A program made the translations under genes and the position numbers. A model generated the notes under the pieces. The model saw nothing but the letters and a program-made list of their open reading frames with translations, searched no databases and had not been told where the DNA came from. This document shows positions 20,101 to 50,973 of a stretch of DNA of 64,000 nucleotides, in pieces. Origin of the DNA: Eledone cirrhosa (taxonomy: Eukaryota); assembly GCA_964016885.1 (NCBI GenBank), contig OZ024741.1, positions 279,992,001 through 280,056,000 on the forward strand. Direction: 5' to 3'. Numbering within the stretch: the first letter of the stretch is position 1; every line of letters begins with the position of its first letter.

Positions 20101-20333
20101 AAGTAGAATCAAAGCCAGTGTTGCAACATATGTACAAACTTTATTGGCATATTACAATTGTTTCGATTTCAATCAGCTCAGGGTAAAATTCATAATGACT
20201 GGGGCCCAACTCTTCTTGACATCTCCTCAGATATGCAAGTTTAGATGTACAAAGACACACCTAAATGTAAAATATCGAAACAATATGCCAATAAAGTTGT
20301 AAATATGCTGCAACACTGACTTCAATTCTTCTT
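20101..20333. mobile_element. Penelope-like terminal-repeat relic with an inverted partial repeat
   Basis: About 20101-20167 is an imperfect inverted repeat of about 20274-20333; contains an HHR followed by AATAAA. Confidence 0.6.
20147..20236 (-). ncRNA. Type I hammerhead ribozyme (Penelope/retrozyme type)
   Basis: GCAUAU-CUGAGGA-GAUGUCAA...UUGAAAUC-GAA-ACAAUUGU-A^AUAUGC; palindromic stem III; predicted cut between 20153 and 20152. Confidence 0.78.
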
Positions 20334-20477
20334 TTTCTATTTACATTCTGCACACTACCGCCACCTTAATTCTGGAATACAACCCAACACGAGATGGACC
20401 TCATAACAGAATGCCGTCTGTAACTGTAGTTACACACCTAACTAACACACACACGTGTGTGTGTGTGTGTATATATA

Positions 20478-20810
20478 TCATCATCATCATCATTTTACGT
20501 CCACTTTTCCCTGCTTGCAAGGGTGGGACGGGAACTGATCCTGGCTTGATTTCTACAGCTGGATGCCCTTCCTAACACCAACCTCATTTACAGTGAGTGC
20601 TGGGTGCTTTTTTGGCGTGGCACCTCCACGACCACTTTGCAGTGGAATGATAGGGACCCAAGTCTTATCTCATTTCTACAGCTGAGTAAACTAGAGCAAT
20701 GTAAAATAAAGTGTCTTGCTCAAGGAAACAACACATCACCCGGTCTGAGAATTGAACTCACAACCTTTCGATTGCAAGCCCAATGTTCCAACCACTAAGC
20801 CATGTGCCTC
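20478..20810 (-). mobile_element. SINE family A copy whose 3' end matches the RTE LINE
   Basis: Reverse-complement match to 5864-6200; the last ~50 nt are nearly identical to 12045-12097. Confidence 0.88.
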
Positions 20811-20848
20811 TATAAATATATATATATATATATATATATTTTTTTTTT

Positions 20849-20899
20849 TACTCTTTTACCTGTTCCAGCCATCCGGCTGAGGCCATGCTGGAGCACCGC
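20849..20899 (-). mobile_element. About 55-bp retroposon 3'-end stub with (AAAAGAGT) tail
   Basis: Near-identical copies at about 31185-31237(+) and 39540-39600(-), all beside or inside TA arrays. Confidence 0.7.
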
Positions 20900-48066: not shown

Positions 48067-48237
48067 TGAATATAAAAGAAAGATAAACACAGATATATAC
48101 ATATATGTGTTCAAATCGTAAGGGACTAGATTCGCTAAGGTGAGTTAGTATTTTTTTCACCTTAGCGAATCTGGTCCCTTACGATTTGAGCACATACGTA
48201 TATGTATATATCTGTGTTTATCTTTCTTTTATATTCA
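48067..48237. repeat. Long hairpin: about 77-bp arms with a 13-nt loop
   Basis: 48067-48143 pairs with 48157-48237; two substitutions and one 4-nt insertion. Confidence 0.9.
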
Positions 48238-50195
48238 ATTATAATATACGGCTCGGAAAAATTCTTTCCTAGAGCTATTTTATTGTAAGTGACTATTTTG
48301 AGTTTCTAATCAATATACACCTTTGATAATTATTATTGTTAAAATAAAGTACCAGTAATGCACTGGGTAATTGCTGGCCTTGTGCCTAAAGTAGAAACAA
48401 TTATTATTAATATTACTTTCTATTTGCCACAAGGGTCGACAAAGAGGGGACAATACAAAGATCAGGAACAGCAGGGGTTTACATAGAAATCGAGTAAAAT
48501 ATATAAACAGATAACAAAATGTATTACAATGAAAATTCCCCAATAGAGGGGTGGGAGGCACTCAGAGGTGACTTAAGAACCCAATAGTAATAATAATAAT
48601 AAAATATTCTCTTTTAATGCTGTTTGGCTGCTGCAGGTTTGTCTTCTCCCCCACCACACAGCTTTTCTTTTCCTTTTTTTAACATTGCTAGTAGCAGAGA
48701 GACTTTCATTTAAGAAGCAGAAAATTTTGAAGTGAAATATACTAATTAGTATTTTTGAAAATGTTGCAAAACTACTGATTCCATTGAAATGTCAATTTAG
48801 CATGCTTCTATTTAGTTGCAACGGAATGTTTTATTTGTGGATGTCAAATTAAAGTATTTGAGCATAGAAAATAAATTGTAAAAATCAATATATATTTTTA
48901 TAATTTCATAGATCTATTACCATTATTGTAGTCAAGCTATTTCCTATGATGTCATTAAGTCTACATTAAGGTTTTAAACTTGCTATTTAATCCCATCTGT
49001 CATAATTCTAGAATTACTGAAGTCTTCTTTTCCTATGTATGTTGAATTCAGATGTTTCTTATAGTATTTAGACTAAAGTCACACCCCAGCCTCTGTCCCA
49101 CAGACGTGCTGTTGTTTCTCTTTGTCCTTTCTACCTATACTACAATGAAAAAAAAAAAAATGAAATGAAAATTACACCTCACACCCATGCTTGCCTCGTA
49201 CAAGGCTGCATTTCATAGAAGGCTTCTTGGGTGTTTTAATAATTCATGCCCCAGTCTTATCATGAAAAGCAATGTGAAATGAAGTGTCTTACTCAAGAAC
49301 ACAATGTGCTGCCTGGTCCAGGAATTGAACCAACAACTTTATGATTATGAGTCCAACACCCTAAACTCTTACCATCTCCATTCAGGCACTCCCAATTCAC
49401 TCATCTCCCCACCTCTCATCACCATACAACCACTCACCCAGCTATGCACTAACCACAATGCCCAATCTTTCTTCATCCATACAACTCTCTGAAATTCTCT
49501 CGATGTTCAGTACAACAGCTCTCAGTGACTCCCGCCCTGTTCATTACAACAGCTCCCTGGGACTCCCGCCCTGTTCAATACAACAGCTATCTGGAACTTC
49601 CTTCCTGTCCATGCCTTTCCTAGAAACATTAATTAGCAACAGTTTAAGCAGAACATATTAATCTCACCAGTTTCAGAGGACCTGTGAAGGCCAGACCTAA
49701 TAAGTAAAACAAAAAAAACATTCAAAAAAAATCTACCAGCAACTAATTTTTCACTTTAAAAATATTTGCCTAGTTTCCTTTATATAAAGAAAAATATTAC
49801 TATATTAAGAATTAGTTTATTTTCCATATTTTCCTGTTCTTAAATTGTATCTTTTTATAGTCATTCCCTTATTTACCTACTAAAACAAACCTAGAATTAG
49901 CATGCAAATCTCCTCCTGCCATCATAAAAAAGAAAGACATATTGGGAAATGTAATCCCTAATATACAAAGACTGGTGGCAAATTGGCAGTCATTAGAACA
50001 TCAGATAAAATGCTTTACAGTATTTGTTGCTGCTCTCTGCCCTCTCTGAGTTCAAATCCTTCCAATGTCAACTTTGCCTTTTGTCCTTTTGATATTGATA
50101 AAAAAAAAAAAGTACCATTCCAGTAGCGAAGTTGATTCTTTATATTTGTTTCTCACTCCTCCCCTCTCTCTCAATATATATATATCTATATGTAA

Positions 50196-50826
50196 ATATA
50201 TGGAGAATAGAAATGGCTGTGTAGTTGCTATTTCAGGTAACCTAAAATCCAGTGGCAATACGAAGAAAGCAAGAACGGGCAGTTGTCTACTGGGAGTCTC
50301 GGATATTTCTACGCTTTAAAGACAAGATATCTACCGCCCAGCATGTTTAATAACTGGGTAAGTTATTGGGAAAACGGAAGAAGGAGCAAAGGGGAAGAAA
50401 AGAGAAAACAGTAACAAAACAGCGAAAAAAACAACAATGCGAGCAACTATAGGTAGGAAATCCAAGACCACTCGATAAGAGAACTTAAGTTCAAGACTGA
50501 GTGGTCGAGAGGAAGGAGAGAGACACACATCATCGCCGCAGTTGTAAGTGAGAAGAGAACTGCTAAACAGTCAGGCGAGGGAGGGAGAGGGAGAAAGTGG
50601 GGGTAAGAGTAGATAGGGAGAAGGGGAGAGGAAGAAAGAGTAGAAAGTGGCGAAATAGGTAGGTAGAAGGGGAGAGAAGAATGGTCACAGCGAAAAACAT
50701 GATGAAATATATGGAGAATAGAAATGGCTGTGTAGTTGCTATTTCAGGTAACTTAAAATGCAGTGGGAATATGAAGAAAGGGGAGGGGGGGGTTCCTCGT
50801 CAGTTGTCTACTGGGGTCTCAGATAT
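50196..50826. mobile_element. Unclassified element with about 110-120-bp diverged direct terminal repeats
   Basis: ATGGAGAATAGAAATGGCTGTGTAGTTGCTATTTCAGGTAAC...CAGTTGTCTACTGGG occurs at about 50199-50306 and 50711-50825; TA-rich flanks. Confidence 0.6.
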
Positions 50827-50935
50827 ATATATATATATATATAAGTATGTGTGTGTGTAAAAGGTAAACAGAAATAAAGCAAACAACACAATTGAAGAAA
50901 TATTTTAGTTTAACACTTGAAATAACAGGAAAAGA

Positions 50936-50973
50936 ATCTTAATGTTTCAGACACTAGTCTTTCATCAGAAGAT
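50936..50973 (-). ncRNA. Degenerate minimal hammerhead relic
   Basis: AUCUU-CUGAUGA-A-AGAC-UAGU-GUCU-GAAACAUU^AAGAU; consistent with CpG decay of a palindromic AACGUU stem III. Confidence 0.55.

Follow-up and report, generated by a model that had tools for sequence, protein, structure and literature searches.

Hammerhead ribozymes are found in mobile elements of animals, among them the Penelope-like elements (PLEs). According to the available text of Cervera & De la Pena 2014 (PMC4209133), the hammerheads in the pseudo-LTRs (pLTRs) of metazoan PLEs belong to type I and have a tiny or palindromic helix III and an unpaired base at the 5' end of helix II. Many unrelated families coexist in one genome, mostly as single motifs, which are attributed to truncated PLEs, and opposite-strand pairs lie 100–700 bp apart. 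Insertions of EN+ PLEs, as presented in the available parts of Arkhipova et al. 2013 (PMC3846280) and Craig et al. 2021 (PMC8557442), include a head-to-head inverted, 5'-truncated copy with a palindrome at the inverted junction, attributed to self-priming, as well as an optional tail at one end and solo pLTRs. They also exhibit a microsatellite bias, toward (TA)n in the case of Naiads and attributed to Neptune as well. [quoted passage not shown] On the other hand, animal non-LTR retrozymes are defined, in the consulted parts of Cervera & de la Pena 2020 (PMC7229834) and of the preprint by Li, Clavereau & Pollet 2026 (10.64898/2026.07.22.740005), by head-to-tail tandem units and circular RNAs. 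Dimer cleavage by hammerheads is treated in the accessible portion of a review (PMC6765202).

The hammerhead cassettes analyzed here lie in a stretch of 64,000 nucleotides from Eledone cirrhosa, referred to below as the window (Table 1). About six PLE families, unrelated to one another, are likely to be represented by them, in each case by the 3' end, which comprises the pseudo-LTR and in some copies a tail; the copies are very short, 5'-truncated or solo, and would have been generated by the route proposed below. The scattered hammerhead motifs are mostly real. A CUGANGA...GAA motif with stems I and II was found at all six positions listed in a preliminary description of this DNA. A minimal type I descriptor allowing a bulged base after A9 recovered six motifs, while shuffled sequence gave 0.20 on average and 3 at most, none of 200 shuffles reaching six; the premise that these motifs exceed their frequency in dinucleotide-shuffled sequence therefore holds. 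With a strict type I descriptor, three to four loci were obtained (shuffle mean 0.03–0.16), a count reached in none of 100 local dinucleotide shuffles, and in one to two of 100 when one CUGANGA mismatch was permitted. The chance expectation from shuffles is 0.05–0.2 motifs per window at each stringency. A match at 12976, within a LINE reading frame, was rejected as chance; the descriptor that returns it is the same loose one needed for the motif at 43178 (E).

The type I core (C3 U4 G5 A6 N7 G8 A9, G12 A13 A14, A15.1, U16.1 and H17, with helices I and II and open at helix I) is present in six of the seven motifs (A, B, C, C2 at 38835, D and F). E is the only one that fails it, since it lacks A15.1 and U16.1. 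Consequently, five of the six hammerheads first reported stand on both the core and the shuffle test, whereas that at 43178(+) is plausible but not established, and a seventh, at 5373–5455(-), had been overlooked. Helix III is perfectly palindromic in B and C, nearly so in A and D, and minimal in F. The earlier observation of tiny or palindromic stems III is thus sustained, except that the + copy of the palindrome pair is altered, with AUGCGCUU instead of AUGCGCAU. Five of the seven motifs (the exceptions being 5373 and 50936) have AATAAA no more than 30 nt from the cut site, in agreement with its reported presence just downstream of most of them. The cassettes share no sequence except the core words and chance-level AT-rich matches, so that they do appear unrelated, but six families fit better than the approximately five suggested before.

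Cassette D (40294–40338) matches the Rfam model Hammerhead_1 with 31.7 bits (gathering score 34, E 2.9e-6). When A, B, C2, D, E and F were scanned singly, none had a hammerhead match at the gathering score and D alone matched at all, with no Rfam hammerhead match at 5373, 20147, 38835, 43178 or 50936. In the whole-window Rfam scan, microsatellite matches to miRNA models dominate among the 150 of 586 matches listed.

Table 1. Positions of the hammerhead cassettes and associated features in the window.
Feature	Position	Strand	Description
Minimal-descriptor motifs	5373-, 20147-, 38640-, 38835+, 40298-, 50936-
Cassette A hammerhead	5373..5455	-	stem I 6 bp, stem II region 49 nt, near-palindromic stem III ACCCUAAGGGU; (TA)n 388 nt downstream
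Cassette B left arm	20101..20251	-	intact hammerhead 20147-20236, stem II region 59 nt, palindromic stem III ACAAUUGU, AATAAA, ~45 nt of 3' sequence
Fold-back B central junction hairpin	20240..20265	.	8 of 9 positions paired (sequence reading and fold)
Cassette B inverted right arm	20256..20333	+	87% identity to left arm over 53 nt
Putative family B 3' tail	20334..20446	+	one arm only; AC-rich run at end, at (CA)/(TG)/(TA) tract; by analogy with C
Host gene first coding exon	24626..24781	+	Pfam DUF7030; GT donor next; following exon not in window
(TA)n-type array, 4.4 kb	36968..41401	.	contains C, D, C tail copy and fragments of other repeats
Cassette C left arm	38601..38772	-	hammerhead 38640-38710, intact; 8-bp stem I, long 15-pair stem II, AUGCGCAU as stem III; no tail, runs out in TA array
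Cassette C right arm	38774..38945	+	hammerhead 38835-38905; palindrome centre 38773
Family C 3' tail, ~95 nt	38940..39033	+	belongs to repeat family; 9-bp hairpin and AC-rich run, then (TA)n
Cassette D	40248..40410	-	hammerhead 40298-40335, AATAAA, ~50 nt of 3' sequence up to (TA)n
D junction	40404..40440	+	5-bp mini-hairpin 40404-40415, then exact inverted 24-nt copy of D 3' end (40417-40440)
Putative family D 3' tail, inverted arm	40441..40539	+	(TA)n at end; by analogy with C
Second family C copy, tail only	41017..41113	+	inside TA array
Cassette E, degenerate hammerhead-like motif, uncertain	43178..43227	+	flanked by two microsatellites; stem I 6 bp, AATAAA downstream, (TA)n 45 nt on
Cassette F, minimal hammerhead	50936..50973	-	5-bp stem I, 4-bp stem II preceded by bulged A, GAAACAUU; (CA)n/(TA)n ~85-100 nt downstream; no AATAAA in 30 nt

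The main clue to the insertion route is a fold-back and tail architecture, which the preliminary description missed at 20.1 and 40.3 kb. Three of the six insertions (B, C, and D, at 20.1, 38.6, and 40.3 kb) consist of a head-to-head inverted, 5'-truncated copy with a palindrome at the junction, and in each of them an additional 3' stretch is found on a single arm. Their fold-back scores are 34, 39 and 24, respectively, against a background 99th percentile of 14.5. In the right arm of B, the CUGA box is missing, along with the greater part of stem II and 6 nt of stem III. The arms of C differ by four substitutions and one indel and form a near-perfect 330-nt palindrome in TA repeats, and in the right arm the 15.2-16.2 pair is disrupted by a private change at 38895. 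No fold-back was detected at A or F, and it is marginal at E, where an inverted match of 17 nt (42867–42883) was left uncounted, being AT-rich and at the background 99th percentile. As a positive control, fold-back was recovered at 10 of 43 metagenome hammerheads with room for it. One metagenome locus holds a complete element that includes an RT; it has a direct repeat of 266 nt and, like D, an inverted copy of 24 nt.

Copy number was examined for one family of the six, C, which proved to be high-copy: the 38.8 kb arm is matched by 4,834 X1 contigs, 5,059 raw X11 reads, 218 X4 contigs, and one X6 contig. X4 is another organism, so family C is present in a second organism as well. Read coverage of 38940–39033 is like that of the C arm, and loose ends pass into (TA)n at 38950, 39033, and 39039 (X1, X11) and at 39035 and 39039 (X4). 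Family C has, therefore, two 3' ends approximately 95 nt apart, both running into (TA)n. Inversion is recurrent, with listed opposite-strand joints at 38774-38938, 38774-39002, and 38776-38845 and eight contigs folding back at 38773; none of the joints listed for this family is head-to-tail. At 38895, AUGCGCAU is found in 2,547 of 2,556 X11 reads, which indicates that a palindromic stem III is the state of the family. The eight listed transitions in stems I and II all preserve pairing, although only 27 of 46 positions would permit it (P = 0.009); the variants listed are all one-sided and may stem from a few linked subfamilies. The 11 core positions are unchanged among them (P = 0.09, non-significant alone), and one listed variant (38891, X11 only) breaks stem III. 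From 38772, some copies extend upstream into further sequence, 30 letters of which are listed.

Four of the six independent insertions have a (TA)5+ tract no more than 120 nt 3' of the cut site, compared to 6% of background positions (binomial P = 2e-4, with a threshold picked after inspection). Other dispersed repeats in the window touch TA tracts in 9 of 38 cases, once two segments that are the C tail itself are dropped (Fisher P = 0.053 versus the cassettes), and TA adjacency was seen in 0 of 43 metagenome hammerheads. The proposed preference for TA arrays is thus upheld against random positions, and the 3' ends of C point in the same direction, but it is borderline against other repeats. 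Because the exon that follows the DUF7030 exon is absent from the window, cassettes C, D, E, and F are probably located inside the first intron of this host gene. Damage is present in each of the three copies on the + strand, which is host-sense, namely E and the right arms of B and C.

No PLE RT or GIY-YIG domain was detected by Pfam among 250 ORFs of at least 50 aa in the window, and the cassettes are too short to hold one. These were drawn from 264 non-low-complexity ORFs of that size, the 14 omitted including frames that overlap a LINE. The sole RT in the window belongs to this APE-type LINE. A tblastn search of the window with 16 ORFs taken at metagenome hammerhead loci, of which several are PLE-like, returned nothing at E ≤ 1, while blastn of the cassettes against 120 metagenome loci gave three weak matches only (E 0.001–0.047) and a pattern specific for cassette D had no metagenome match. 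The idea that the tails encode a PLE N-terminus was also unsupported: the D tail peptide has no match, the C tail has one spurious match to a tandem-repeat protein, and the candidate ATG at 38944 is variable among C copies. With no PLE RT or GIY-YIG domain in the window, the tie to an autonomous PLE is drawn from anatomy.

Under the route put forward here, AT-rich DNA would be nicked by a GIY-YIG/RT protein that a PLE encodes and that works either in cis or in trans. Reverse transcription would then begin at either of two sites downstream of the hammerhead, producing copies with or without the tail, and the copy would often fold back at a short palindrome, presumably by self-priming, so that two arms end up head to head and only one of them has the tail. 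The hammerhead would be carried passively as a standard part of the pLTR, where its palindromic stem III may suit cleavage as a dimer within the parent element's tandem transcripts. In isolated copies, the hammerheads are probably inert, since a partner on the same strand is missing and, where the copy is folded back, the hammerhead would be paired with the antisense arm. For families A, B, D, E, and F, we infer everything past the anatomy.

Some of the motifs, E foremost and then F and A, might be chance occurrences or parts of other repeats, leaving fewer than six real families, which we consider rather unlikely. In its favor, E needs two core mismatches under a descriptor that also matches LINE coding sequence, Rfam gives no hammerhead match for any of A, B, E, and F, and copy number is known for C alone. 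Against it, shuffling predicts only 0.05–0.2 motifs per window, E combines a 6-bp stem I with AATAAA and a (TA)n tract 45 nt on, A combines a stem I of 6 bp with a stem III that is self-complementary, and F holds a bulged base after A9, as do PLE hammerheads in the available text of PMC4209133. A different origin would follow if TA-targeting DNA elements, MITE-like or of fold-back type, accounted for the palindromic cassettes, the hammerhead words being incidental. TA is a frequent target of DNA transposons, which fits the insertion context, and C is a near-perfect 330-nt palindrome in TA repeats. Nevertheless, no fixed terminal inverted repeats or constant symmetric structure were found: the arm lengths of C vary by copy (joints to 38845, 38938, and 39002), tails are one-sided and tail-only copies exist, B and D are asymmetric, and variation in C preserves RNA helices, all of which makes this origin very improbable.

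A further alternative is non-LTR retrozymes, non-coding tandem units that would be cut by the hammerhead, circularized, and re-inserted by PLE proteins, the cassettes being their dispersed monomers. The cassettes are indeed non-coding, of comparable size (approximately 260 nt for C), with type I hammerheads, that of D resembling the canonical Hammerhead_1, and some C copies continue upstream; furthermore, the available text of the preprint (10.64898/2026.07.22.740005) allows families with many monomers and a derivation from pLTRs. Yet tandem hammerhead units are absent from the window, the end-joining joints listed for C link opposite strands, none of the listed ones being head-to-tail, and its 3' ends enter (TA)n, so that we regard this option as distinctly unlikely, the boundary between retrozymes and PLE ends being partly definitional. 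Of the Penelope/retrozyme assignment originally given to these hammerheads, the PLE half agrees with their type I structure and published anatomy, while the retrozyme half gains no support from the window or from the joints listed for C. Nor is a distinct, poorly known non-coding fauna supported, as single hammerheads, unrelated families, opposite-strand pairs, inverted truncated copies, tails, and microsatellite bias have all been published for PLE ends. It is also conceivable, although we consider it unlikely, that family C is not debris of a long element but a self-standing, highly amplified, non-autonomous PLE mini-element of approximately 260 nt, with a hammerhead under selection whose helix II is unusually long (15 pairs), a favored site of folding back, and two points, approximately 95 nt apart, at which the RT starts. 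Its head-to-head copies would silence their own ribozyme by antisense pairing and bring long, perfectly paired hairpins into introns of the host, and this genome would then offer a natural test of whether intronic hammerheads on the sense strand are purged by hosts.

As ends of PLEs, the cassettes look like ordinary short ends of several families of known type, the families themselves being new: a literature search found no paper describing them, and the words "hammerhead" and "ribozyme" are absent from the main text of the Octopus vulgaris repeat annotation (PMC13282606). Current knowledge of PLEs or hammerheads is unchanged by these findings. Their value is chiefly for annotation, as Rfam misses five of six motifs scanned singly, and family C, which is abundant, with two 3' ends and recurrent fold-backs, is a convenient natural dataset for how PLEs make inverted or tailed insertions.

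Like the hammerheads in the available text of PMC4209133, those described here are of type I and have a minimal or palindromic helix III, belong to unrelated families, and include an opposite-strand pair, while F and E share the unpaired base at the 5' end of helix II. Unlike them, the helix II regions of A, B, and C span 36–59 nt (15 pairs in C) instead of 7–8 bp, helix II of C is closed by A-U rather than by the G10.1-C11.1 pair, called highly conserved in that text, and no PLE ORF is seen flanking the cassettes. The two 3' ends of C, the outer of which follows a hairpin and an AC-rich run, resemble the two start sites of PAc as far as it is described in PMC11167929; however, the PAc ORF begins within the hammerhead, whereas no ORF start is demonstrable in C or D. 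With retrozymes, as portrayed in the consulted parts of PMC7229834 and the preprint, the cassettes have in common a non-coding unit of a few hundred bases, a type I hammerhead, a relation to pLTRs, and dispersed monomers, but the defining tandem units do not occur within the window. Naiads have no canonical hammerheads according to the available text on EN+ PLEs (PMC3846280 and PMC8557442), and the present cassettes do, so they are not ends of Naiads. The tail of family C is longer than those given there (approximately 95 nt versus 30–40 bp). Cassettes B, C, and D nevertheless share with EN+ PLE insertions the head-to-head inversion and the junction palindrome, together with a tail at one end, demonstrated for C and putative for B and D.

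Hammerhead-like motifs are present at all six places where the preliminary description had put them. Under a minimal descriptor with a bulged base after A9, six motifs are found in the window, against a mean of 0.20 in shuffled sequence, and none of 200 shuffles reaches six, so that the expected excess over shuffled sequence is borne out. A strict type I descriptor recognizes three to four loci (0.03–0.16 in local dinucleotide shuffles), a count reached in 0 of 100 shuffles, or in 1–2 of 100 when a mismatch in CUGANGA is allowed. Rfam recognizes only D, whose score against Hammerhead_1 (31.7 bits) lies under the gathering threshold of 34, and gives no hammerhead match for A, B, C2 (the right-arm hammerhead of the C palindrome), E, or F. 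The looser descriptor that passes E also yields a chance match inside a LINE frame, which makes E uncertain as a hammerhead. There is a low but not negligible probability that E, or less likely F or A, is not a real hammerhead.

B and C have a perfectly palindromic stem III, A and D a nearly palindromic one, with predicted self-duplex energies of −14.8 (A), −10.5 (C), −6.4 (B), −2.3 (D), and +2.8 kcal/mol (F). The cassettes are indeed unrelated, as their common sequence consists of core words and chance-level AT-rich matches only. An AATAAA had been ascribed to most motifs; in five of seven it is no more than 30 nt away from the cut site, and in the other two it is absent there. Upstream of A (4992–5640, −) there are CCAAT- and CACGTCA-like words, a GTATGT donor-like word follows 14 nt past the cut site, and an AATAAA precedes (TA)n at 4990 by about 25 nt; this region may be a whole pLTR (pseudo-LTR, the terminal repeat of a Penelope-like element, PLE) plus a long tail.

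Features of the window, with positions and strand
Feature	Position	Strand	Remarks
A hammerhead	5373-5455	-	minimal descriptor; overlooked in the preliminary description
B hammerhead	20147-20236	-	minimal descriptor
B junction hairpin	20240-20265		
C hammerhead	38640-38710	-	minimal descriptor
C2 hammerhead	38835-38905	+	minimal descriptor
D hammerhead	40298-40335	-	minimal descriptor
E motif	43178-43227	+	without A15.1 and U16.1; looser descriptor only
F hammerhead	50936-50973	-	minimal descriptor
Tail-only copy of family C	~41017-41113		
(TA)n arrays	224-4069, 27759-32179, 36968-41401		
LINE frame	12267-15071	-	APE endonuclease and RT; 935 aa, open
First coding exon of conserved host gene	24626-24781	+	Pfam DUF7030
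Minisatellite	4326-4552		36-nt unit, 5 copies
Minisatellite	59121-59475		33-nt unit, 11 copies

A feature overlooked in the preliminary description is the combination of fold-back and tail. In B, C, and D, the 3' end of the element recurs in inverted form directly upstream of it (scores of 34, 39, and 24; 99th percentile of the background, 14.5); the inverted copy is marginal in E, and inverted-copy scoring finds none at A and F. C forms a full head-to-head palindrome with its centre at 38773, the arms of which differ by four substitutions and one indel. Missing from the right arm of B are the CUGA box, 6 nt of stem III, and the greater part of stem II. In D, a junction hairpin of 5 bp precedes an exact inverted copy of 24 nt. 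All three right arms carry some 95–110 nt of extra sequence reaching a microsatellite. Since there is no same-strand partner and the C transcript is predicted to fold into one long hairpin (−252 kcal/mol), isolated copies would be inert.

The lodging of the cassettes at TA microsatellites, also claimed previously, stands against background positions and is borderline against other repeats. The nearest (TA)5+ tract 3' of the cut site lies at 72 (C), 57 (D), 45 (E), 99 (F), 388 (A), and 283 nt (B), so that four of six insertions have one within 120 nt, a threshold set after inspecting the data, versus 6% of background positions (P = 2e-4). Other dispersed repeats of the window are a fairer control: 11 of 40 segments (9 of 38 without the two C tail segments) lie within 60 nt of a TA tract, and the comparison with the hammerheads gives a Fisher P of 0.053. 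None of 43 metagenome hammerheads with enough flank has a TA tract nearby, a weak control because such tracts are where short-read contigs often end.

Family C was followed in four sequencing runs (query 38760–39040, 80% likeness). X1 holds 4,834 contigs with a summed depth of about 1e6, which is not a copy number, versus 3.6–21.5 for the longest contigs listed; X11, a further sample with the same species label, holds 5,059 raw reads, X4, from another organism, 218 contigs, and X6 a single one. From this we infer that family C exists in thousands of copies or more. The stretch 38940–39033 has the same depth of coverage as the arm and is thus the family's own tail. Loose ends behind 38950, 39033, and 39039 run into (TA)n in X1 and X11, as do those behind 39035 and 39039 in X4, indicating two 3' ends that are separated by about 95 nt and both lie at TA repeats; those behind 38930 are less uniform. 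Toward the 5' end, raw depth across 38770 drops from 436 to 9, eight contigs show the same fold-back as the window, and opposite-strand joints connect 38774–38776 to 38845, 38938, or 39002. In another 15 contigs and 253 reads a different sequence stands upstream, so that a longer form of C exists. The tail end at 39000–39033 bears a 9-bp hairpin with AATAAA and then an AC-rich run; its depth in X4 is about ten times that of the rest, which suggests that another family shares this end.

Among 40 of the 47 variants of family C, 14 lie within the hammerhead. At 38895, A is read in 2,547 of 2,556 X11 reads and across almost the whole X1 depth; the palindromic AUGCGCAU is therefore the family state, and the change in the + copy of the window is private. 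All eight listed transitions in stems I and II keep their pair, which 27 of 46 paired positions would allow (P = 0.009); one further listed variant is at the free N7 and three are in loop 2, none falls on the 11 core positions (P = 0.09), and 38891, seen in X11 only, breaks stem III. As the changes are one-sided and may reflect a small number of linked subfamilies, they support selection on the structure and are not proof of covariation. The common helix II variants (38850–38876) comprise A>G at four places, T>C at two, and G>A at one, with all pairs kept; A>G in A-U pairs is the pattern expected of reverse-transcribed A-to-I editing, but subfamily differences explain it equally well.

The window consists of animal-type, AT-rich DNA in which long (TA)n arrays occur. 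The first array has a 24-nt higher-order periodicity and a repeated 89-nt island (2644–2732, 4064–4152, and the start of the window), and similar islands of other repeats lie inside arrays at 31185, 37758, and 39550. The dispersed repeats presumably resemble octopus SINEs. The LINE, apparently young and with a PHD finger C-terminal to its RT, is not a PLE. A 175-aa protein matches the host exon at 52 of its first 53 residues; DUF7030 presumably lies at the N-terminus of KDM3/JMJD1C demethylases. No further exon of this protein is found in the window, up to 64000, so that the gene's first intron probably spans 39 kb or more and probably contains everything past 24.8 kb. Hammerhead copies on the host sense strand (+) are all damaged (the B right arm, 20256–20333; C2; E) and the antisense copies A, B, C, and D are intact; these numbers are too small to carry meaning, and B is upstream of the first coding exon.

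No PLE domain is found by Pfam in 250 ORFs of the window, and no match at E ≤ 1 when 16 metagenome-locus ORFs are compared with it by tblastn; nor do the tail frames of either C or D match a PLE protein. A generic pattern of minimal hammerhead plus AATAAA, used as a positive control, retrieves at least 120 metagenome loci, many of those listed being dispersed single cassettes of a few families. Among those listed, 13 match by tblastn the frames of two loci, L009 (an RT) and L017 (carrying a GIY-YIG domain by Pfam), and 10 of 43 hammerheads with room have a fold-back. L009 combines a 266-nt direct repeat with a 24-nt inverted copy, the same inverted length as in D. The control tells the usual nature of such cassettes; membership of the window families is not thereby established. 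One hammerhead-plus-AATAAA family makes up a large share of the loci listed (among them L002, L004, and L005); its cassettes are single and dispersed, end at either of two 3' positions, and are in some cases head-to-head (L021 and L073).

The motifs and fold-backs are observed directly, as are, for C, the abundance, the two TA-bound ends, the inversion joints, and the conserved helices. Most likely the cassettes are abbreviated 3' ends belonging to about six PLE families. A PLE protein partner would insert the copies, self-priming would yield the inverted ones, and the hammerheads would cleave as dimers. Retrozyme monomers are an improbable alternative: their units are similar in size and the two classes are related, according to two accounts (preprint 10.64898/2026.07.22.740005; PMC7229834), but the tandem arrangement that defines them is not seen, and no head-to-tail joint of family C occurs among the loose ends listed (210 further ones exist). 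A MITE-like DNA element is less probable still, being contradicted by the variable arm length and the one-sided tails.

Each of the structural features reported for PLEs in the following accounts has its counterpart in the window. The PLE protein is described as cleaving AT-rich DNA and as beginning reverse transcription from two sites; both belong to an AC-rich stem-loop that follows the hammerhead, and the stretch between them is the optional tail (PMC11167929). Truncated (5') inverted copies with junction palindromes, mostly head-to-head, have been ascribed to self-priming (PMC3846280), and inverted copies, one-sided tails, and a microsatellite bias are reported as typical (PMC8557442). A genome can contain many unrelated families of minimal hammerheads, which mostly stand alone and sometimes form opposite-strand pairs 100–700 bp apart, with inactive monomers and weak dimers (PMC4209133). 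The literature search returned no publication on these cassette families, and an octopus repeat annotation lists 31 recently active Penelope-like families in a main text that makes no mention of ribozymes (PMC13282606). Compared with known PLE ends, the cassettes differ in the long helix II regions of A, B, and C (36–59 nt) and, in C, in the A-U closing pair and the 95-nt tail.
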